Of a DNA stretch of 18,973 nucleotides, positions 1,366 to 9,420 are shown one piece after another. Both the position numbers and the translations under genes were made by a program. The DNA comes from Ignavibacteriales bacterium (GTDB lineage Bacteria > Bacteroidota > Ignavibacteria > UBA10030 > UBA6906): contig JBBIRR010000061.1 of the NCBI GenBank assembly GCA_037441705.1, forward strand, positions 1 to 18,973, read 5' to 3'. Each line of letters opens with the position of its first letter. Position 1 is the first letter of the stretch. The notes under the pieces were generated by a model, which saw only the letters and a list, made by a program, of their open reading frames with translations, ran no database searches and was not told the origin of the DNA.

Positions 1366-2814
1366 TCAACTTCTGAGTGTGAACCAGAAGGTACTTCCCT
1401 TTCCCGGTGTGCTTTCCACATGGAGGGTGCTGCCGTGCGCTTCGACGATGTGCTTGGCGATGGCAAGTCCAAGCCCCGTGCCGCCGACCTCGCGCGAGCG
1501 GTTCTTGTCGACGCGGTAGAAACGCTCGAAGATGCGCGGCAGATGCTCCGCGGCAATACCGACGCCGGTATCGGCAACAGCGATGCGCACGAAACCATCC
1601 TGCAGCGTGTAGGAGACGCTCACCTCGCCGTCGGGCCTGTTGTACTTGATGGCATTTTCTAAAAGGTTCTCGAACACAACCCGCAACCGTTCCCGGTCGC
1701 CCAGCACCTCCACGGCGTCGGAGGAAGAAGGCACGAGCCGCAACGTAACGTTGTTGCGCTCGGCGCTCGTGCGGTACTCCTCCATGAGGGCGGTGAGAAA
1801 CTCATGCAGGTCAAAATAGCGGAAGCTCATCTTCATCTCGCCCGACTCGATATGCGAGATGGTCATCAGGTCTTCTAATAACGAGTTGAGGCGAACGGAG
1901 TGTTCGTAGGCTTTCTTCAGGAAGGTCCGGTTCACCTGCGGGTCGTCCACTGCTCCCTCCATCAAGGTCTCGAGAAATCCTTGAAGCGAAAAGATAGGCG
2001 TGCGCAGTTCGTGAGAGGCATTCCCGAAAAACTCGGTGCGGACGCGCTCAAGCTTTTTCAGCCGGACGATATCGGCTTTCAGTTTATCCACCATCTCGTT
2101 GACGGCACGCGCAACGCGCGCAACCTCATCGTTGCCCCGCACCGTGATGTGTGTGTCGAGTTCGCCGGCACGAATGCGTTCGACCGCATCGGCAATCGTC
2201 ACCATCGGACGGGCAATGCGGCGGGAGAGAACCACGCTCACCGCGATCACCACCCCTAAGACAACAAGGCCGGAAAGGATGATCGCCAGTTGTTCTTTCG
2301 CAGCCATGCTGTCAACATCGGTCAGATGTGCGCTCACACGAACAACGCGCACCCCGGCGAGCACACCGGTCGCCCCGGCAAGCCGCATACGACGGGCTAC
2401 GTACAACAGCTCCCCATGCACGGTTGCACTGCGGCGCGTTGCTACACCTATTCTCCCGCGCACAGCGTCCTGGACTTCCGGCCTGCTGAGATGATTCTCG
2501 ATGGATGACGTGTGATCGATCGGTACATCGGAGTCGATCAGAACCGTCCCTGATGAATCTATCAGTGTAATGCGCAGACCCGTGGCACGAGCAAAGCGTA
2601 CAACCGAGCGATGGAGCGCGGCAAGCGTCTGATCGGTCTCCGAGGGAAGCAGCTCCGCGAGCGCCGTGATACGTTCTTCAAGCTCATCAATCTTTCTGTC
2701 GACGAGGTACCTTTTCGTAGCAATCCCCGCAAGGATCGCCAAAGAGGTTACTGTCACAACCGTCAGGACGACGTAGGTGAGTGTGATTTTGGTTTGAAGC
2801 CGCTGTATCGGCAT
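1366..2814 (-). CDS. phoR: PhoR-like sensor histidine kinase (2 TM, extracytoplasmic sensor, HAMP, HisKA, HATPase)
   Basis: 482 aa; two hydrophobic segments; ENHLSRPEV motif familiar from PhoR-type sensors; H-box SHELRTP; N-box NLLENAIKYN; DTGVGI; FERFYRVDKNRSREVGGTGLGLAI. Start overlaps the regulator stop (TGATG, 2816-2812). Confidence 0.85.
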   Translation of the reverse strand: MPIQRLQTKITLTYVVLTVVTVTSLAILAGIATKRYLVDRKIDELEERITALAELLPSETDQTLAALHRSVVRFARATGLRITLIDSSGTVLIDSDVPIDHTSSIENHLSRPEVQDAVRGRIGVATRRSATVHGELLYVARRMRLAGATGVLAGVRVVRVSAHLTDVDSMAAKEQLAIILSGLVVLGVVIAVSVVLSRRIARPMVTIADAVERIRAGELDTHITVRGNDEVARVARAVNEMVDKLKADIVRLKKLERVRTEFFGNASHELRTPIFSLQGFLETLMEGAVDDPQVNRTFLKKAYEHSVRLNSLLEDLMTISHIESGEMKMSFRYFDLHEFLTALMEEYRTSAERNNVTLRLVPSSSDAVEVLGDRERLRVVFENLLENAIKYNRPDGEVSVSYTLQDGFVRIAVADTGVGIAAEHLPRIFERFYRVDKNRSREVGGTGLGLAIAKHIVEAHGSTLHVESTPGKGSTFWFTLRS

Positions 2815-3500
2815 CAGGCCCTCATCCGGTAACCCACACCTTTGACGGTTTCGATGTACTCCCCGCAGGCGCCGAGTTTTTCCCGAATCTTGCTGATGTG
2901 GACATCAACCGTTCGGTCAACCACGCGCACATCGTCGCCCCACACGCTGCTGAGCAATACCTCCCGCGTAATGACACGCCCGCGATGGCGGGCCAGATAC
3001 AGGAGTGTTTCGAACTCCCGCCGCGTCAGCACGACCGGTTTTCGACGAACCGTCACGGTGTAGCGGGGCACGTCGATTTCCAACTCATCAATCGTGATGT
3101 GCTCATCGTGCGGCGGGCCGTCGACGCGCTGGTCGTGGCGACGCAGCGCCGCTCGCACGCGCGCCAGCAAGCTGCGCACGGCGATGGGCTTCACAACGTA
3201 GTCGTCCCCACCTAACTCCAGCCCCAACACCTCATCCACCTCCGTGCCCTTTGCGGTGAGAAAGATGATGGGCGTGGCTGCCGTTTTCGGATCTCGTTTC
3301 AGTTCCTTGCACACTTCCCAGCCGTCCATTTCCGGCATCATCACATCCAGCAGAACGAGATGCGGAGACAACTTCGCTTGCTTCAACGCTTCGATCCCGT
3401 TTCGCGCCGTCAGCACGGCATAGCCCTCCTTTTCCAGATTGTACCTCAGCATGTCGAGGATATCCTGTTCATCGTCAACGACGAGGATGGTTTTTCGCAT
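2814..3500 (-). CDS. OmpR-family response regulator, PhoP/PhoB-like
   Basis: Receiver motifs ILVVDDE, LLDVMMP, FLTA, KP; winged-helix motifs RTVDVHISKIREKL and IETVKGVGY. Start placed at ATG 3500 (MRKTILVVDDE, 228 aa) with GGAAGG upstream, rather than 3611. Confidence 0.9.
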   Translation of the reverse strand: MRKTILVVDDEQDILDMLRYNLEKEGYAVLTARNGIEALKQAKLSPHLVLLDVMMPEMDGWEVCKELKRDPKTAATPIIFLTAKGTEVDEVLGLELGGDDYVVKPIAVRSLLARVRAALRRHDQRVDGPPHDEHITIDELEIDVPRYTVTVRRKPVVLTRREFETLLYLARHRGRVITREVLLSSVWGDDVRVVDRTVDVHISKIREKLGACGEYIETVKGVGYRMRA

Positions 3501-3566
3501 AGGGGAACCTTCCATTGGTGATGCCGCACCGCCAATATATGAAACTCTCCCGAAACCTTCTCTTGC

Positions 3567-3599
3567 TTGACATTGAATTACCTTCTCCACATTTTGTGG
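3567..3599 (+). promoter_or_regulatory. Possible sigma70-type promoter for the hypothetical-polB unit, overlapped by a short palindrome
   Basis: TTGACA (3567-3572), 17 bp, weak -10 CATTTT (3590-3595); CCACA-TTT-TGTGG (3587-3599) overlaps the -10; AT-richer patch between divergent genes. Confidence 0.35.
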
Positions 3600-3761
3600 G
3601 AGGCAACGCACGCTCCTTCAACGACGATCCAACCATCCGCCACAGCGGCCGGGCAGCTTGGGAGAGAGAGGCTTGCTGACGGGACAACGAAAGCCGAGCG
3701 CAGCACAACATCAGACAGGGCCGGCCTCCACGATGAACAGCCACTTGAGCGAGAGACACGC

Positions 3762-4250
3762 ATGATTTCCGCAACGACCATTGACCACGTGCTGGAGAGA
3801 ATGTCCGACCAGACCCCCGAACAGGCACAAGCGTTGGTTCTGCAAATGAGTGAGGAGCAGCCGAACGTTCTCGCCTTCTTGACCGTCCTGAGTAAATACG
3901 AAGGCTTCAACCGACTGGAGCGGCAGTTCTTTTGTTATATCGGCATTATCATCTGGCAGATCCTCGAACAACGTCCGGGCGGATGCAAGAGTGTGTCAAA
4001 CGAACATCTGGAACAGATATATCAAGCAAACAAGGATTTTTTTGCAAAGGTGGCTTCGGATTCGGCGGGCGACTTCGTGGGCGGTTTGCTCTCCATGATC
4101 GAGAGCTATCCCGAGCCTGAGGTGCTGAGGTACCTCACAGGGGTGCTCAAGGATGACGCGCAAGACGCCCCCAGCGGCATGGACATGCGTCGCGAGAACC
4201 TTGACTTTGCTTTCCTTCATCTGAAGACCATCTTGGACTCGTTGATTTGA
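3762..4250 (+). CDS. Hypothetical acidic, probably all-helical protein with a two-fold internal repeat
   Basis: 162 aa from ATG 3762 (GAGAGA upstream), protein-like composition, ends 33 bp before polB; QPNVLAFL / EPEVLRYL repeat. The frame is open back to 3567, but the extension looks non-coding. Confidence 0.75.
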   Translation: MISATTIDHVLERMSDQTPEQAQALVLQMSEEQPNVLAFLTVLSKYEGFNRLERQFFCYIGIIIWQILEQRPGGCKSVSNEHLEQIYQANKDFFAKVASDSAGDFVGGLLSMIESYPEPEVLRYLTGVLKDDAQDAPSGMDMRRENLDFAFLHLKTILDSLI

Positions 4251-4283
4251 GGAGAGAAAGACTTCGGAAGCAACAATTCCTCT

Positions 4284-6551
4284 ATGGGCAGGATGGTTCA
4301 TACCGGCTGGCTGTTCGATGTGTATCCGTCGCCCGGGGGCATTACCCTGTGGGTGATCGATGAACAAGGCGAGCAGCATTCCGCCGCGGTGCCGTATGCG
4401 CCGTCGTTCTACATGCACATCCCGCAGAGCGACGAGCCGCGCGTCGCCGCACTCGTGCGCCGCTTTCCGTGCCGCATCACGTTGGATTGGGTGCTGAAGC
4501 GCGAGCTGTACTCGAACGAAGAGTGGCGACTCCTGCGCGTGCAGGTTCATGATCCGCTTCGGCTGAAAGAAGTGGTGCGCGCGCTGGAGCATCATTTTCC
4601 GCATTTCGTGTTCTTCAACTCCGACATCCCGCCGCAGCAGACGTACCTGTACGAGACCGGACTATTCCCGCTTGCCTATGGACAGTACACATTCTCGGCC
4701 GAGGGCACCCTTCTCGCCGCTGATCTTGCCGACAAGCGCGAGGCCCTCGAATACTCCATGCCGCCGCTGACGTTTCTGAAACTGGCCAATCGTCCCGACG
4801 TCCTCTCTCCCAGATACCGAAAGACGATCCAGCTGGAGATCAGCTACAACGGTGAGACGTACAGTGTGCAGCAGGACAATCCTGCCGACATTCTCGCATC
4901 CGTGAACGACCACCTCCGGCGCTGCGATCCGGATGTGATTATGACGGAGTACGGCGACGCCCTTCTGCTGCCGATGCTTGACCGCCTGTCGCAGGAGCAT
5001 CGCATGCCGCTGCTGCTGAACCGCGACCCGCACGCGGGGTACTTCCGCACGCGTGAGTCGAGTTATTTTGTGTACGGAAAAATCGTGCACAAAGAAGGCG
5101 CGTTCGAGCTGGCCGGCAGATGGCACCTCGATACGGAGAATTCGTTCATGATGGGCGAAGCGAGCCTCGACGGCGTTGTGGAGATCGCCCGCCTCACGCA
5201 ATTGCCTGTGCAGCATCAGGCGCGTTCAAGCATTGGCACGGCACTCTCGTCCATGCAGCTTTCCTGGGCCTATCGCAACAACTATCTCATCCCCGCGAAG
5301 AAACGCGAGCCGGAGAGTTTTAAGTCCGCTGCCACCCTGCTGCTTGCCGACCGCGGTGGTTTGATCTTCCAGCCCGTGATGGGATATCATGAACAGATTG
5401 CGGAGTTAGATTTCGTCTCGATGTACCCGAGCATCATGGTAGAACACAATGTGTCGCCGGAGACGGTGAATTGTCGCTGCTGCCGCAACCGCACGGTACC
5501 GGAGTTGAACTACACCATCTGTGAAAAACGCGAGGGCATTGTTCCGGCAACGCTGCGTCCTCTTGTGGAGCGACGGTCGTTCTACAAAAAGGAAAAGAAG
5601 CGCCTCAAGAAACTCGGTGATGAACGCTGGCATGTCTACGACCACCGTCAGAATGCGCTCAAGTGGATGCTGGTGACTTGCTTCGGCTATCTCGGGTACA
5701 AGAATGCCCGCTTCGGCAAGATCGAGGCTCACGAGTCGGTCAATGCCTTCTCGCGCGAGTGCATCTTGAAAGCAAAAGAACTTGCCGAAGCGCGCGGCTA
5801 TCGCTTCCTGCACGCTATCGTGGATTGCATGTGGTTGAAGAAGGAAGGAGCAACGGAAGCGGACTACGAACAGCTGTGCAGCGAGATCAAAGCCGCCACC
5901 AACATCGAAATCTCCCTCGAAGGCATCTACCGCTGGATTCTGTTCCCGGCGTCGAAGATGGATCCGAACATTCCGACGGCAAATCGGTACGTGGGCTTCT
6001 ATACGAATGGGGAGATCAAGGTCCGCGGGATCGAGCTGCGACGCCGCGATACGCCTCTGTTCATCAAACGCATGCAGGCAAAGATGCTCGAAGCGTTCCA
6101 GCATGCAACCGGCGTCGCTGAAGTCGAAGCGTCCGTTCCGACTGCACTTGCTGCGGCTCGCGAGTTCCTCGCCTTGCTGGCCTCCGGCAAAGCCGACCCT
6201 CTCGAGCTGGTTATTCGGCAGCACATCTCGCAGGAGCCGGAGGAGTACACCACCAACAGCGCAAACGCTGCGGCTGCAAAAGCGCTGGACGACGCAGGCA
6301 TTACGTTGCGTCCCGGGGAAATGCTGGAGTACATCATCGTTGACGCTAAGGGGAAGAAGAAGCCTGCAAAGGCCGTCCCGCTGGCATTGTACTCATTCGA
6401 AGATGGATATGATATTGAGAAGTACACCGAGCTGGCACTGAAGGCAATTGCAACATTGCTTCTTCCTTTCGGATACTCGCCCCAGCGGCTGCGTGAGGAA
6501 GCGATCCCGCGTCTGGACTTGCAGCAGAAGAAGACAGCAGTGATGCCGTGA
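4284..6551 (+). CDS. B-family DNA polymerase, PolB2-like
   Basis: 755 aa; motif A ELDFVSMYPSIM..HNVSPET; motif B RQNALKWMLVTCFGYLGY; motif C HAIVDC (5811-5828); NRYVG; KVRGIELRRRD. Exonuclease acidic motifs not recognisable (DPDVIMTEYGDALLLPML). Confidence 0.92.
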   Translation: MGRMVHTGWLFDVYPSPGGITLWVIDEQGEQHSAAVPYAPSFYMHIPQSDEPRVAALVRRFPCRITLDWVLKRELYSNEEWRLLRVQVHDPLRLKEVVRALEHHFPHFVFFNSDIPPQQTYLYETGLFPLAYGQYTFSAEGTLLAADLADKREALEYSMPPLTFLKLANRPDVLSPRYRKTIQLEISYNGETYSVQQDNPADILASVNDHLRRCDPDVIMTEYGDALLLPMLDRLSQEHRMPLLLNRDPHAGYFRTRESSYFVYGKIVHKEGAFELAGRWHLDTENSFMMGEASLDGVVEIARLTQLPVQHQARSSIGTALSSMQLSWAYRNNYLIPAKKREPESFKSAATLLLADRGGLIFQPVMGYHEQIAELDFVSMYPSIMVEHNVSPETVNCRCCRNRTVPELNYTICEKREGIVPATLRPLVERRSFYKKEKKRLKKLGDERWHVYDHRQNALKWMLVTCFGYLGYKNARFGKIEAHESVNAFSRECILKAKELAEARGYRFLHAIVDCMWLKKEGATEADYEQLCSEIKAATNIEISLEGIYRWILFPASKMDPNIPTANRYVGFYTNGEIKVRGIELRRRDTPLFIKRMQAKMLEAFQHATGVAEVEASVPTALAAAREFLALLASGKADPLELVIRQHISQEPEEYTTNSANAAAAKALDDAGITLRPGEMLEYIIVDAKGKKKPAKAVPLALYSFEDGYDIEKYTELALKAIATLLLPFGYSPQRLREEAIPRLDLQQKKTAVMP

Positions 6552-6624
6552 CGCCGACGCCAAGGTAATCCAGAGCAGGAAGCAGCATCAAGTCGCAAGC
6601 GAGAAACGAGTGCGACCCCGGCAC

Positions 6625-7692
6625 TCATTCCCACCGGAACATCTTCACGGCAACGAACACCGAAATCACACACCACACCGCAAGTCCCGCGATATCGGGC
6701 AGAACCTCGGTCAGGGTTGCGCCCTCGATTGCAATATTGCGCAGCGCGTCCGCAAGAAAGGAAAGCGGGAAGTAGTCCACCGCACTGCGCACGAAGCCGG
6801 GGAGCGCCGAGCGGCTGAAGAAGACACCCGACAGCAGCATCATCGGCATGGCGATGACGTTGGCAAGCGGCGCAACCTGATCCTCACTTTTGCTGATGCC
6901 GGCGATGGCAAACCCGAGAGCGAGGAACACGACCGCGCCAAGGATGCCGACCACAAACATCTCCCAGAAGCTGCCGATGAAATGAAGGTCCAGAAAGAAA
7001 TACGGCACGAGCGTCATGATCACAATTTGCAGCATGACCAACACCAGGCGCATCCCCACCTGCGCGATGATGAAGTCGTTGGGGTTGATGGGCGTAACGA
7101 ACAGCCTGCGCAGGATGCCGCGCTTCTTCATCGAAACGAAGCCGAACGCCACCCCGAAAATGCCCAGCTGCATGATGGACATGGAAAGAATTCCCGGCGC
7201 AACGAAATCAAAATAGGTAAGATGGCGGCTCGCCACCGCTTGCAGCGTGACGCGGGTGCGTGCCGTTGCGCCGAGCGCCGCAAAGGTCATCTCATCCACC
7301 ACACGCTGAAGAATCATCCCGCCGAGCTGGGCTTCTTGCGGTCGAGCATCGTTGGTGAACGCAAGCAGCTCCGCCCCCGAGGAGGGCCGGTACCCCCGCG
7401 GGATCACAAGAACCATGACGCGCTCGCCCTTTATCAGCTCGCTCAGTTCTGCTTCCCGCGCCCCTTCGTGCACTCTGAATGCATGAACCTTCCGCAGTGC
7501 TGCGATCAGCGAGTCTCCCATCGCTCCCGCTTCATTCACAACACCAAGGTCAATACGCCCAACCCCATCGAAGCGAACAAAGCTGAACAGGAGAATCATG
7601 AACAGCGGCAGCAGCAGCGACCAGAGCACAGCTTCCCGTTGGCGGAAGAGCATTTTCAGAGAAGCGACGAACAGTTTCCATTTCAGACGCAT
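6625..7692 (-). CDS. ABC-2 type transporter permease
   Basis: 355 aa from ATG 7692; N-terminal TM, extracytoplasmic loop, further TMs; YFDFVAPGILSM, KKRGILRRLFVTPI, PMMLLSGVFF, YFPLS. Confidence 0.9.
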   Translation of the reverse strand: MRLKWKLFVASLKMLFRQREAVLWSLLLPLFMILLFSFVRFDGVGRIDLGVVNEAGAMGDSLIAALRKVHAFRVHEGAREAELSELIKGERVMVLVIPRGYRPSSGAELLAFTNDARPQEAQLGGMILQRVVDEMTFAALGATARTRVTLQAVASRHLTYFDFVAPGILSMSIMQLGIFGVAFGFVSMKKRGILRRLFVTPINPNDFIIAQVGMRLVLVMLQIVIMTLVPYFFLDLHFIGSFWEMFVVGILGAVVFLALGFAIAGISKSEDQVAPLANVIAMPMMLLSGVFFSRSALPGFVRSAVDYFPLSFLADALRNIAIEGATLTEVLPDIAGLAVWCVISVFVAVKMFRWE

Positions 7693-7744: not shown

Positions 7745-8512
7745 TCAATCCTCGCGCAACGAATGTCCGGTAAGACTCAGGAACACATCTTCGAGGTTCG
7801 CCAATCTTTCGATACGTTCCTTCTTGAAGCCTCCCGACACAAGCTTGTTGATGAGTTCCTGCGGGCGATCGAGGGCGATAATCTTTCCCTGATCCATGAT
7901 CGCAACACGGTCGCAGAGTTCCTCCGCCTCCTCCATGTAGTGCGTGGTGATGACGATGGTTTTTCCTTCCGAGCGAATCCTCTTGATCACTCCCCACAGA
8001 TGTCGTCGCGACTGCGGATCGAGTCCCGTTGTCGGCTCATCCAGAAAGAGAAGGACCGGTTCATTGACGAGAGCAGCGGCGATGGAGAAGCGCTGCTTCT
8101 GTCCGCCGGAAAGGTGAGCGACGTACGATTTCGCCTTATCCTCCAACTCTACTTCCTGCAAGAGTCGCATCGGGTCCACCTCCCGGCCGTACATTGCGCC
8201 GAACAGCTCCAGCAGCTCCTTCAGCGTGAGCTTGTCAAAGAAGGACGAGGACTGCAGCTGCACGCCGATGATTCGTTTCACCTCCTGCGGCCGTCGTTTC
8301 ACGTCGAGTCCGTTCAGGTGCACGTCGCCTTCGTCTATCGGTCGAAGGGTTTCGATCATCTCCAGCGTCGTCGTTTTGCCCGCGCCGTTGGGACCGAGGA
8401 TGCCGAAGATCTCTTGTTTGTACACCGCGAAGCTGATGTGGTCCACAGCCACGAGGCCGTTGTAGCGCTTGGCGAGATTGCGGACGTTGAGGATTGGCTC
8501 CATCTCTCTCAC
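7745..8512 (-). CDS. ABC transporter ATP-binding protein (DrrA/CcmA-like exporter)
   Basis: Walker A GPNGAGKTT, signature LSGGQKQR, Walker B LFLDEPTTGLD, H-loop TTHYMEEA. Start is GTG 8512 (overlapping the MTase stop) or ATG 8503. Confidence 0.93.
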   Translation of the reverse strand: MREMEPILNVRNLAKRYNGLVAVDHISFAVYKQEIFGILGPNGAGKTTTLEMIETLRPIDEGDVHLNGLDVKRRPQEVKRIIGVQLQSSSFFDKLTLKELLELFGAMYGREVDPMRLLQEVELEDKAKSYVAHLSGGQKQRFSIAAALVNEPVLLFLDEPTTGLDPQSRRHLWGVIKRIRSEGKTIVITTHYMEEAEELCDRVAIMDQGKIIALDRPQELINKLVSGGFKKERIERLANLEDVFLSLTGHSLRED

Positions 8513-9420
8513 TTCACCTCCAGGGGATTGTCCTGCTGCAAGCGCCGCTGTGCGAGCCTGCAGTACGATTCATCCAGCTCATACCCGACGTAATGGCGCC
8601 CGCACGTTTTTGCCGCTAAGCACGTCGTGCCACTGCCGCAGAACGGGTCGAGCACGACGTCGCCGGCAAAGGTGTAGAGTTGGATGAGTCGCCGCGGCAG
8701 TTCGACGGGAAAGGGGGCCGGATGACCGATACGGGTTGCACGCTCGGCAGGAAATTGCCACACGCTTTTCGTGTACTCCAAAAACTCTTCGCGCCCGATC
8801 GTGCTCTGCTTGCCGGACTTCGGGCGCGCGAAATCTCCTTTCGTGAAAATCAGGATGTACTCATGCACATCCCGCAGCGTTGGGTTGCTTGCGGATTGCC
8901 AGCTTCCCCATGCCGTCGAAGGACTCGCGCTGGAGGCTTTGTCCCAGATAATCTCGCCGCGCATCTGATAGCCGAGCGCCTGCATGTCCTGAATGATGTA
9001 CGCGTGCAGCGGAATGTACGGCTTCCGTCCGAGGTTGGCGACATTGATGCACGCCCTGCCGCCGTTGACGAGAACGCGGAACGTCTCGCCAAAGACACGC
9101 CTGAGCAGAGCGCGATACTCGTCCAACGTCAAGTTGTCGTCATACTCCTTCGTCACGTTGTACGGCGGGGAGGTCACCATCAGATGGACGCTGTTGTCGG
9201 GCAGTTCATCCATCTGTTCGCTGCTCTTGAGAAAAATCTTGTCCAGCGATGAGATGGGGAGGGCATTCTCGTCGGGACGCTCCTTTCGGGAACCATCACG
9301 ACGCAAGCCATCGTACAGTTTGCTCGAGTAGAACTTCGACGAATCATGTCCGATGCGCCCGGGCGTGCCGAACGAGCTTGTTGACGTGGGAGTGCGATGA
9401 TATTTCTTCTTTGCCCTCAT
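8509..9420 (-). CDS. Site-specific DNA methyltransferase, N6/N4 family, beta class (probably m4C)
   Basis: 303 aa; catalytic motif IV VTSPPY precedes HPAPFP and SAM-binding motif I VLDPFCGSGTT, giving beta order; SPPY is typical of N4-cytosine enzymes. Confidence 0.9.
   Translation of the reverse strand: MRAKKKYHRTPTSTSSFGTPGRIGHDSSKFYSSKLYDGLRRDGSRKERPDENALPISSLDKIFLKSSEQMDELPDNSVHLMVTSPPYNVTKEYDDNLTLDEYRALLRRVFGETFRVLVNGGRACINVANLGRKPYIPLHAYIIQDMQALGYQMRGEIIWDKASSASPSTAWGSWQSASNPTLRDVHEYILIFTKGDFARPKSGKQSTIGREEFLEYTKSVWQFPAERATRIGHPAPFPVELPRRLIQLYTFAGDVVLDPFCGSGTTCLAAKTCGRHYVGYELDESYCRLAQRRLQQDNPLEVK

Follow-up and report, generated by a model that had tools for sequence, protein, structure and literature searches.

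A PolB2-group DNA polymerase gene unlinked from its iRadA and PPB2 partner genes in an Ignavibacteriales genome

The polB2 gene and its place among family-B polymerases

The window is an 18,973-nucleotide (nt) stretch of DNA from an Ignavibacteriales bacterium (assembly GCA_037441705.1, contig JBBIRR010000061.1, forward strand), analysed here as a whole. It carries polB2, a gene whose product, a DNA polymerase of 755 amino acids (aa), is a member of the bacterial PolB2 (G2) group. This group has already been described in the literature, together with its altered motif C, dead exonuclease and partner proteins iRadA and PPB2. The sole unusual point of the window gene is that the iRadA and PPB2 genes are unlinked from it and do not lie directly upstream. 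An earlier interpretation, made from the letters and open reading frames (ORFs) and called here the sequence-only reading, had proposed a PolB2-type polymerase at this position. The features of the gene, with residue numbers of the protein, are as follows.

4284..6551, + strand: polB2, family-B DNA polymerase, 755 aa, probable catalytic subunit, bacterial PolB2 (G2) group (Pfam, NCBIfam, alignment to the structure 4flt, AlphaFold2 model)
4713..4733, + strand: Exo I remnant LAADLAD, residues 144-150, DxE changed to D-L-A (HMMER alignment to 4flt)
4944..4979, + strand: Exo II remnant TEYGDALLLPML, residues 221-232, catalytic Asn and Asp replaced (4flt and clade alignments)
5157..5177, + strand: Exo III remnant EASLDGV, residues 292-298, Tyr and Asp of YxxxD gone (clade alignment)
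5319..5354, + strand: FKSA...DR, residues 346-357, predicted Rad51-type FxxA docking motif for iRadA followed by D(K/R) (conservation, complex model)
5409..5432, + strand: motif A DFVSMYPS, residues 376-383, catalytic D376 (4flt and clade alignments)
5469..5522, + strand: Cys cluster C397, C399, C400 and C413 (C-x-CC-x12-C), residues 396-413, between motifs A and B (clade alignment)
5661..5717, + strand: motif B KWMLVTCFGYLGYKNARFG, residues 460-478, with K460 (clade alignment)
5811..5828, + strand: motif C HAIVDC, residues 510-515, IVD replacing DTD, catalytic D514 retained (4flt alignment)
6510..6548, + strand: short C-terminal tail with no recognisable beta-clamp-binding motif (homologue comparison, model)

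The ORF begins with ATG and has zero internal stops over its 755 codons, as the sequence-only reading had stated in calling it full length. The Pfam family DNA_pol_B matches residues 323-698 (E 2.1e-34), and the nearest solved structure is the Pyrococcus abyssi PolB (4flt, E 2.3e-53). In the residue-level alignment to 4flt, DFVSMYPS falls on motif A and HAIVDC on YIDTDG; therefore, the first Asp of motif C is replaced by Ile and the second is retained. In 31 diverse relatives (31-56% identity), D376 and D514 are invariant, K460 is nearly invariant, and the motif C consensus is LHxIVDSLW. These observations confirm what had been read from the sequence about both motifs, namely an intact motif A Asp and a motif C that has lost its first Asp. 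The AlphaFold2 (AF2) model has a predicted local distance difference test score (pLDDT) of 91.1 and matches archaeal PolBs over the full length, with template modelling (TM) scores of 0.63-0.75. A polymerase fold with motifs A and B intact has thus been obtained from Pfam, 4flt, the model and conservation. The four residues of the Cys cluster are nearly invariant in the clade and appear in the consensus of the 31 distant relatives as well; they possibly form a metal or disulfide site. The length of the protein is in line with its relatives (755-790 aa), except for the shorter C-terminal tail, of which residues 742-755 are disordered in the AF2 model.

Several relatives of 1237-1306 aa, among them P0125, P0158, P0169, P0171, P0173 and P0176, match the query in two stretches. 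The first stretch stops near residue 467, in motif B, which is the pattern expected from an intein-sized insertion. Stop codons have also been observed within matches in genomes of the same order: one TGA in the PolB2 match of G040 (C5:853996-856601), one TAG in the PPB2 match of G040, and one TGA in the PPB2 match of G032 (C1:403316-403579). These may be broken copies or sequencing errors.

The sequence-only reading had described the exonuclease motifs as eroded, and none of the three is intact in the 4flt and MAFFT alignments. The DxE of Exo I reads D-L-A against 4flt and E-I-S in an alternative register obtained with MAFFT against the exonuclease-positive PolB encoded elsewhere in the genome, and DxE is intact in neither register. 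The Exo I position is variable within the clade, and its remnant strand comprises residues 143-148 in the AF2 model. The NxxxFD of Exo II is replaced by YGDALL in the 4flt alignment, and the YxxxD of Exo III by E..LDG in the MAFFT alignment to the same exonuclease-positive PolB. No Pfam DNA_pol_B_exo1 match has been found in PolB2 at E<=0.001, while the other PolB of the genome matches at 1.2e-18. The exonuclease active site, judged from these alignments, is lost. Since the model matches archaeal PolBs over the full length, the exonuclease domain persists as a fold without an active site.

Membership of the PolB2 group is indicated by the IxD motif C, the dead exonuclease, the D(K/R) pair, the iRadA-docking segment, the operon orthologues and a tree position apart from exonuclease-positive PolBs, so the group assignment made in the sequence-only reading stands. 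The top NCBIfam models, both named "type B DNA-directed DNA polymerase", score below their cut-offs (PRK05761.1-2, 412 bits against 516; PRK05761.1-4, 408 against 692). The Pol II models of NCBIfam score at most 67.7 bits, which agrees with the earlier statement that the protein is distinct from E. coli Pol II. Of 8000 candidates in a protein search, 4846 reached E<=1e-10; the 120 best of these, which were listed, include many proteins from metagenome-assembled genomes labelled Ignavibacteria or Bacteroidota that are 67-88% identical to PolB2. In a 50%-clustered library, 875 relatives have been found at E<=1e-30. Orthologues are present in 36 of 41 related genomes, this one counted, and their identity declines with kinship from 88% to 54% across the genomes of the order.

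The trees were built by quick searches with Shimodaira-Hasegawa-like approximate likelihood ratio test (SH-aLRT) support only, and their rows are the ORFs under tblastn matches. All 79 PolB2 rows group together in a single clade (SH-aLRT 99), to the exclusion of three exonuclease-positive PolBs, in a tree with no named PolB1, PolB3 or Pol II references. The clade includes two Bathyarchaeia PolB2s and ten bacterial phyla, with support of only 33 and 51 for the archaeal rows. A bacterial subclade G2, nested in archaeal B2, has been described by Kazlauskas 2020 (PMC7544198) as having an unconserved Exo I, a missing Exo III, a one-Asp motif C and a conserved D(K/R). Acquisition of PolB2 by bacteria from archaea has been proposed in PMC7544198 and PMC11791011.

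The partner genes and the split operon

An iRadA-PPB2-PolB2 operon has been described by Timinskas 2025 (PMC11791011, sections 3.1-3.3) as the sole gene order known in bacteria. According to the same paper, the N terminus of PPB2 forms an MGRT arm, the D(K/R) of PolB2 is preceded by a Rad51-like docking motif (section 3.3.2), and lexA and DUF72 genes are enriched near bacterial PolB2 operons. The same account of bacterial PolB2 is repeated in PMC12926913. Supplementary file 1 of PMC11791011 includes operons from Ignavibacteriota/Bacteroidota, and the nine-residue motif C of the window protein appears in it 10 times.

The linked arrangement is found in nearly all relatives of the window gene. 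In the fetched loci of relatives (L006-L015), iRadA (~215-240 aa in the fetched loci) is followed by PPB2 (94-99 aa, starting MGRT) and then by PolB2. In public sequences, both iRadA and PPB2 precede polB2 on its own strand in 57 of the 59 assessable loci, a locus being assessable when at least 1300 nt upstream of polB2 are available; 21 of the 80 named loci are not assessable. The 80 loci come from Ignavibacteriota/Bacteroidota, Kryptoniota, Nitrospirota, Thermodesulfobacteriota, Chloroflexota, Armatimonadota, Acidobacteriota and Sumerlaeota, with one from Bacillota and two from Bathyarchaeia. Among the 41 related genomes, PPB2 is present in exactly the same 36 as PolB2, and in 34 of these 36 it lies directly upstream of polB2, on the same contig and within ~630 nt.

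The exceptions to the linked operon are the window genome (G000) and its nearest relative G003 (locus L035, 88% identity). The adjacency of the three genes is absent from the window, where the gene upstream of polB2 is a 162-codon ORF, up162. The partner genes of the window genome have been located on another contig by a search of the genome contigs.

C1:349141-349743, - strand: iRadA
C1:348794-349048, - strand: PPB2, starting MGRT

On contig C1, iRadA-PPB2 is followed by a convergent haem-binding gene, and the same arrangement is seen in G003. In G007, the operon is intact and followed by groES-groEL, and up162 lies on another contig beside a response regulator and histidine kinase pair that also neighbours it in the window. 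Downstream of polB2, groES-groEL has been retained in G003, and a convergent ABC-2 transporter is found in the window. In the tree, the window protein pairs with L035 (support 100), and the pair is joined next by G007 (100). Since up162 is restricted to 3 of 41 genomes and its G007 copy is without polB2, the move of polB2 to a site beside up162 dates to the ancestor shared by G000 and G003. A third exception, L042 (G043), has PPB2 on another contig and sits in a different subclade of the tree, which indicates at least two independent splits. The combination of unlinked partners and a lost operator falls under the class "6 (only PolB2)" of the supplementary table of PMC11791011; sections 3.1-3.3 of that paper hold no discussion of partner retention elsewhere in "only PolB2" genomes.

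In a genome of the same genus (G006, contig C46; L007 256-945), an ORF lies between iRadA and PPB2. By eye it has the look of an IS200/RAYT-type transposase, and the operon would then be interrupted by a mobile gene.

The iRadA of the window genome has no GK[ST] Walker A motif in its sequence and no Pfam match even at E<=1. Its model (pLDDT 91.3) has Rad51, DMC1 and RadA proteins as all of its best fold matches (E ~1e-9, TM 0.60-0.68). On the PolB2 side, the putative docking segment is well conserved: F346, K347, A349 and R357 hardly vary in the clade, and D356 is the same in all 31 diverse relatives. The D356-R357 pair has been equated with 253-DK-254 of S. islandicus by the description in PMC11791011 only.

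A model of the PolB2-iRadA complex reached a score of 0.77, compared with 0.01 for the best of three controls. The 0.77 mark is reached by 116 of 157 solved complexes and by 2 of 215 mismatched pairs (rough counts, own alignments having been used). The model runs agree in at least 89% of contacts, with a partner pLDDT of at least 76. The core of the predicted interface is formed by PolB2 residues 339-356, the segment described in PMC11791011. The model supports binding of iRadA by PolB2 without demonstrating it.

All three genes have been under purifying selection since the split. Between G000 and G003, the ratio of non-synonymous to synonymous substitution rates (dN/dS) is 0.068 for polB2 (dS 1.33), 0.149 for iRadA and 0.104 for PPB2; by comparison, the response regulator gives 0.066 and up162, likewise under purifying selection, gives 0.178.

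Control elements and surroundings of the separated genes

In six genomes of the genus, the region upstream of iRadA contains a promoter of the form TTGAC(A/T)-17 nt-TAT(C/A)(A/C)T with the palindrome CGACA-W4-TGTCG in its spacer, often accompanied by a second copy. The iRadA promoter of the window genome reads TTGACT...TATCAT, and its 17-nt spacer contains the palindrome, with copies at C1:349809 and 349841. A scan with the degenerate (IUPAC) motif found three exact sites in the whole genome.

Contig C1: exact operator 1, in the iRadA promoter, with a one-mismatch copy adjoining
Contig C19 ~5565 (L034 2346-2359): exact operator 2, in a matching promoter that separates a DUF72 gene from an HTH_3 + Peptidase_S24 gene
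C49:24125: exact operator 3, an intergenic site

At the C19 locus, the DUF72 gene is divergent to the HTH_3 + Peptidase_S24 (LexA-like) gene, and a second DUF72 gene flanks the latter. In five relatives, 14 exact operator sites have been found, compared with 0 for a reversed control pattern. Among the 13 of these sites with a fetched locus, 5 are at the DUF72/HTH-S24 locus and 4 are upstream of the iRadA operon. The HTH-S24 protein is the putative repressor and would be a non-canonical LexA, such as those described from Bacteroidetes. The motifs published for non-canonical Bacteroidetes LexA proteins, GGA-N5-TCC and CTAA-N5-TTAG (PMC8565304), have been considered and do not match CGACA-W4-TGTCG. 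A limited full-text literature search found no published description of this palindrome or of an Ignavibacteria LexA/SOS system. The candidate damage regulon of the lineage is very small and comprises iRadA-PPB2 and the DUF72/HTH-S24 locus. In G001 (upstream region of L008, L125), ~300 nt separate the upstream operator from iRadA, and the operator precedes a small Cys-rich ORF, possibly an additional first gene of the operon.

The genes and regions immediately upstream of polB2, together with the only DNA-modification gene among the scanned ORFs, are listed below.

1366..2814, - strand: HAMP-HisKA-HATPase kinase (Pfam)
2814..3500, - strand: OmpR-type response regulator (Pfam, synteny)
3501..3761, no strand: divergent intergenic region between the response regulator and up162, the only candidate promoter for up162-polB2 (sequence)
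3762..4250, + strand: up162, 162 aa, apparently helical, no known family, 33 nt upstream of polB2
8509..9420, - strand: N6_N4 DNA methylase (Pfam)

The up162 protein has no Pfam or NCBIfam match. All three genomes with up162 belong to the genus of the window genome, and the gene always lies beside the same two-component pair; the G007 match is in two pieces. Synteny with G007 identifies the kinase and the response regulator as old neighbours of up162. As a new partner of PolB2, up162 has been rejected on its presence in 3 of 41 genomes and its position in G007 beside the two-component pair without polB2; its native place is next to the response regulator. In the region upstream of up162, G000, G003 and G007 share a conserved core CTTGACATTGAA..CCTTCTCC, and this promoter core is older than the arrival of polB2. 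A scan of positions 3400-6800 with sigma-70 and terminator consensus patterns found no promoter before up162 or polB2, with 2 sites overall against 1.2 expected.

No integrase, transposase, Cas1, terminal-protein, phage or plasmid gene has been found by Pfam among the 23 ORFs of the window, in keeping with the earlier remark that no phage, casposon or plasmid genes lie nearby. The GC content is even (0.54-0.61). The N6_N4 methylase gene abuts an ABC-transporter ATPase gene, and no restriction-enzyme partner has been found among the scanned ORFs.

The sequence-only reading had recommended that the genome be checked for dnaE2, imuAB and umuDC. When searched, the genome yielded neither dnaE2 nor a second, imuB-like IMS gene, nor any S24 gene of the umuD type. 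A single IMS (Y-family) gene, with no S24 gene next to it, was found, together with one DnaE and one S24 gene, the latter a helix-turn-helix (HTH) fusion; on these counts neither umuDC nor imuAB-dnaE2 is present. With one Y-family polymerase and neither of these systems, the PolB2 complex would be the only mutasome-type system of the genome. The second PolB of the genome is a separate polymerase.

Contig C36 (L001 1303-3675), - strand: second PolB, 790 aa (Pfam DNA_pol_B_exo1 1.2e-18)

It has intact Exo I (DIE), Exo II (NFD), Exo III (YALDD) and DTD motifs, is 20% identical to PolB2, and lies outside the PolB2 clade of the tree. A candidate home for it is the exonuclease-proficient bacterial group G3, which is uncharacterised and said to be universal in Chlorobi (PMC12926913).

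Interpretation and comparison with known systems

The polB2 gene probably encodes the catalytic subunit of the bacterial PolB2 mutasome, a proofreading-less polymerase system whose operon has been split by a rearrangement in the window genome and G003. The protein is a family-B polymerase, probably of ancient archaeal origin, that has lost 3'-5' proofreading and retained the metal-binding residues D376 and D514. It is predicted to work in a complex with iRadA, a RadA homologue with a dead ATPase site, and a PPB2 trimer built from small helical subunits. By analogy with Sulfolobus Dpo2, an active enzyme without exonuclease activity that can extend mismatches as well as lesion termini (PMC8764526), PolB2 would extend primer ends opposite lesions or mismatches. 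The rearrangement has left iRadA-PPB2 on contig C1 behind the palindrome-bearing promoter and placed polB2 after the unrelated up162, with which it is probably co-transcribed, at a position with no operator. The polB2 of this lineage thus appears to have escaped operator control, and damage induction of the partner genes would run through the HTH-S24 protein. The error-prone or extender polymerase with a mutasome-like role that the sequence-only reading had put forward matches the published interpretation of the group (PMC11791011, PMC12926913), but that reading had overlooked the partner proteins, which define the system.

Several observations weigh against this interpretation. The window has no exact operator, and none is found at 3136-4873 even with 2 mismatches, a scan outside which weaker degenerate copies would fall. 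A clamp-type motif, Q..[LMFIV]F, is absent from the last 45 aa of PolB2 and present in 61 of 121 homologues, and the tail of iRadA is also without such a motif. In both its regulation and its use of the clamp, the system of the window genome may therefore depart from the canonical one. The complex model comprises PolB2 and iRadA without PPB2, and its pass may partly reflect likeness to solved Rad51 FxxA interfaces. Binding of the HTH-S24 protein to the palindrome is suggested by position alone; ~40 nt separate the box from the DUF72 start, and ~270 nt separate it from the S24 gene. Finally, the activity and extender role of a bacterial PolB2 are proposed from the archaeal homologue Dpo2; the mutasome role of bacterial PolB2 has been published as an in-silico result, with biochemical support from Dpo2 only.

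The missing operator and clamp-type tail also bear on a rewired polymerase, in which PolB2 would act alone or with the up162 protein, under the adjacent two-component system and outside the iRadA/PPB2 complex. The 33-nt spacing of up162 and polB2 on the same strand in both G000 and G003, and the conserved up162 promoter region facing the OmpR-type regulator, agree with such a role. On the other hand, the distribution of up162 and its G007 copy without polB2 indicate that the adjacency comes from one rearrangement. The nearly invariant FxxA/DR segment has been retained and the PolB2-iRadA model passed its controls, while iRadA and PPB2 have remained under purifying selection since the split and the independent split in G043 also kept PPB2 elsewhere in the genome. 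Rewiring is considered unlikely. More improbable still is a decaying relic, in which polB2, away from its partners and operator, would be becoming a pseudogene or would encode a catalytically dead protein. The lost first Asp of motif C and the dead exonuclease form a pattern formerly read as inactivation of the whole group (PMC7544198), and the C-terminal tail is shortened. However, the 755-aa frame is intact, the dN/dS of polB2 at a dS of 1.33 is as low as that of the response regulator, and D376, K460 and D514 are retained; moreover, Dpo2 shares the IxD motif and polymerises DNA robustly (PMC8764526; PMC11791011, section 3.2).

The loss of all three Exo motifs and the gap between the Pol II models (at most 67.7 bits) and the best NCBIfam model (412) argue against an accurate Pol II-like polymerase for repair or replication restart, as does the separate PolB with intact Exo I-III and DTD outside the PolB2 clade. 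Such a role would fit a family-B polymerase in a bacterial chromosome, and Dpo2 has high fidelity on undamaged DNA (PMC8764526), but it is very improbable here. Least probable of all is a polymerase carried by a casposon, plasmid or phage. Family-B polymerases are common on such elements and the N6_N4 methylase gene lies 2 kb downstream, but integrase, Cas1, terminal-protein and phage genes are absent among the 23 ORFs, the GC content is even, and 36 of the 41 genomes examined within the order have orthologues, whose identity tracks kinship.

For the preferred reading, a split mutasome operon, a tentative and rather doubtful extension is that the split has uncoupled control. In this extension polB2 would be expressed from an ordinary promoter beside the two-component system and iRadA-PPB2 alone would remain behind the damage operator, so that damage would gate the assembly of the mutasome instead of the synthesis of its polymerase. 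The at least two independent splits, with partners retained each time, suggest that linkage of the three genes is dispensable and that in undamaged cells PolB2 may also act without its partners. The finding adds little alone, as Ignavibacteriota operons with the same motif C are present in the published tables (PMC11791011). Its modest value is in part that of a natural experiment, in which polB2 has been separated from iRadA-PPB2 and the operator while all three genes are still under purifying selection.

Compared with the bacterial PolB2 (G2) mutasome, the window PolB2 shares the IxD motif C, the dead exonuclease, the D(K/R) pair and the FxxA docking segment. The genome also shares a Rad51-fold iRadA without Walker A, a PPB2 starting MGRT, and the association with DUF72 and a LexA-like gene. 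Unlike the bacterial operon, polB2 is here unlinked from iRadA-PPB2, which lie on another contig, and has no operator and no clamp-type tail. Dpo2 of Sulfolobus islandicus/S. solfataricus (PMC8764526, PMC7390963) belongs to the same family and has the same first-Asp-to-Ile change in motif C (IID, compared with IVD here). It has no exonuclease activity and is encoded with iRadA and PPB2; the window protein is known from sequence alone, whereas Dpo2 is known from biochemistry and genetics. At the level of the whole system, archaeal PolB2 has been associated with PCNA and Orc1/Cdc6-type regulation, and bacterial PolB2 with LexA-type control and the beta-clamp as its sliding clamp (PMC11791011, sections 3.1 and 3.3.3).

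E. coli Pol II (PolB, group G1) resembles the window protein in its family-B fold and location on a bacterial chromosome, but it has an active DEDDy exonuclease and YGDTDS, features that the sequence of the window protein lacks. The catalytic subunits of Pol V (UmuD'2C-RecA) and ImuA-ImuB-DnaE2 are unrelated to PolB2 and belong to the Y and C families, respectively. The likeness to these two systems is one of outline: a damage-controlled, multi-subunit polymerase without proofreading that works with a RecA-family accessory protein.

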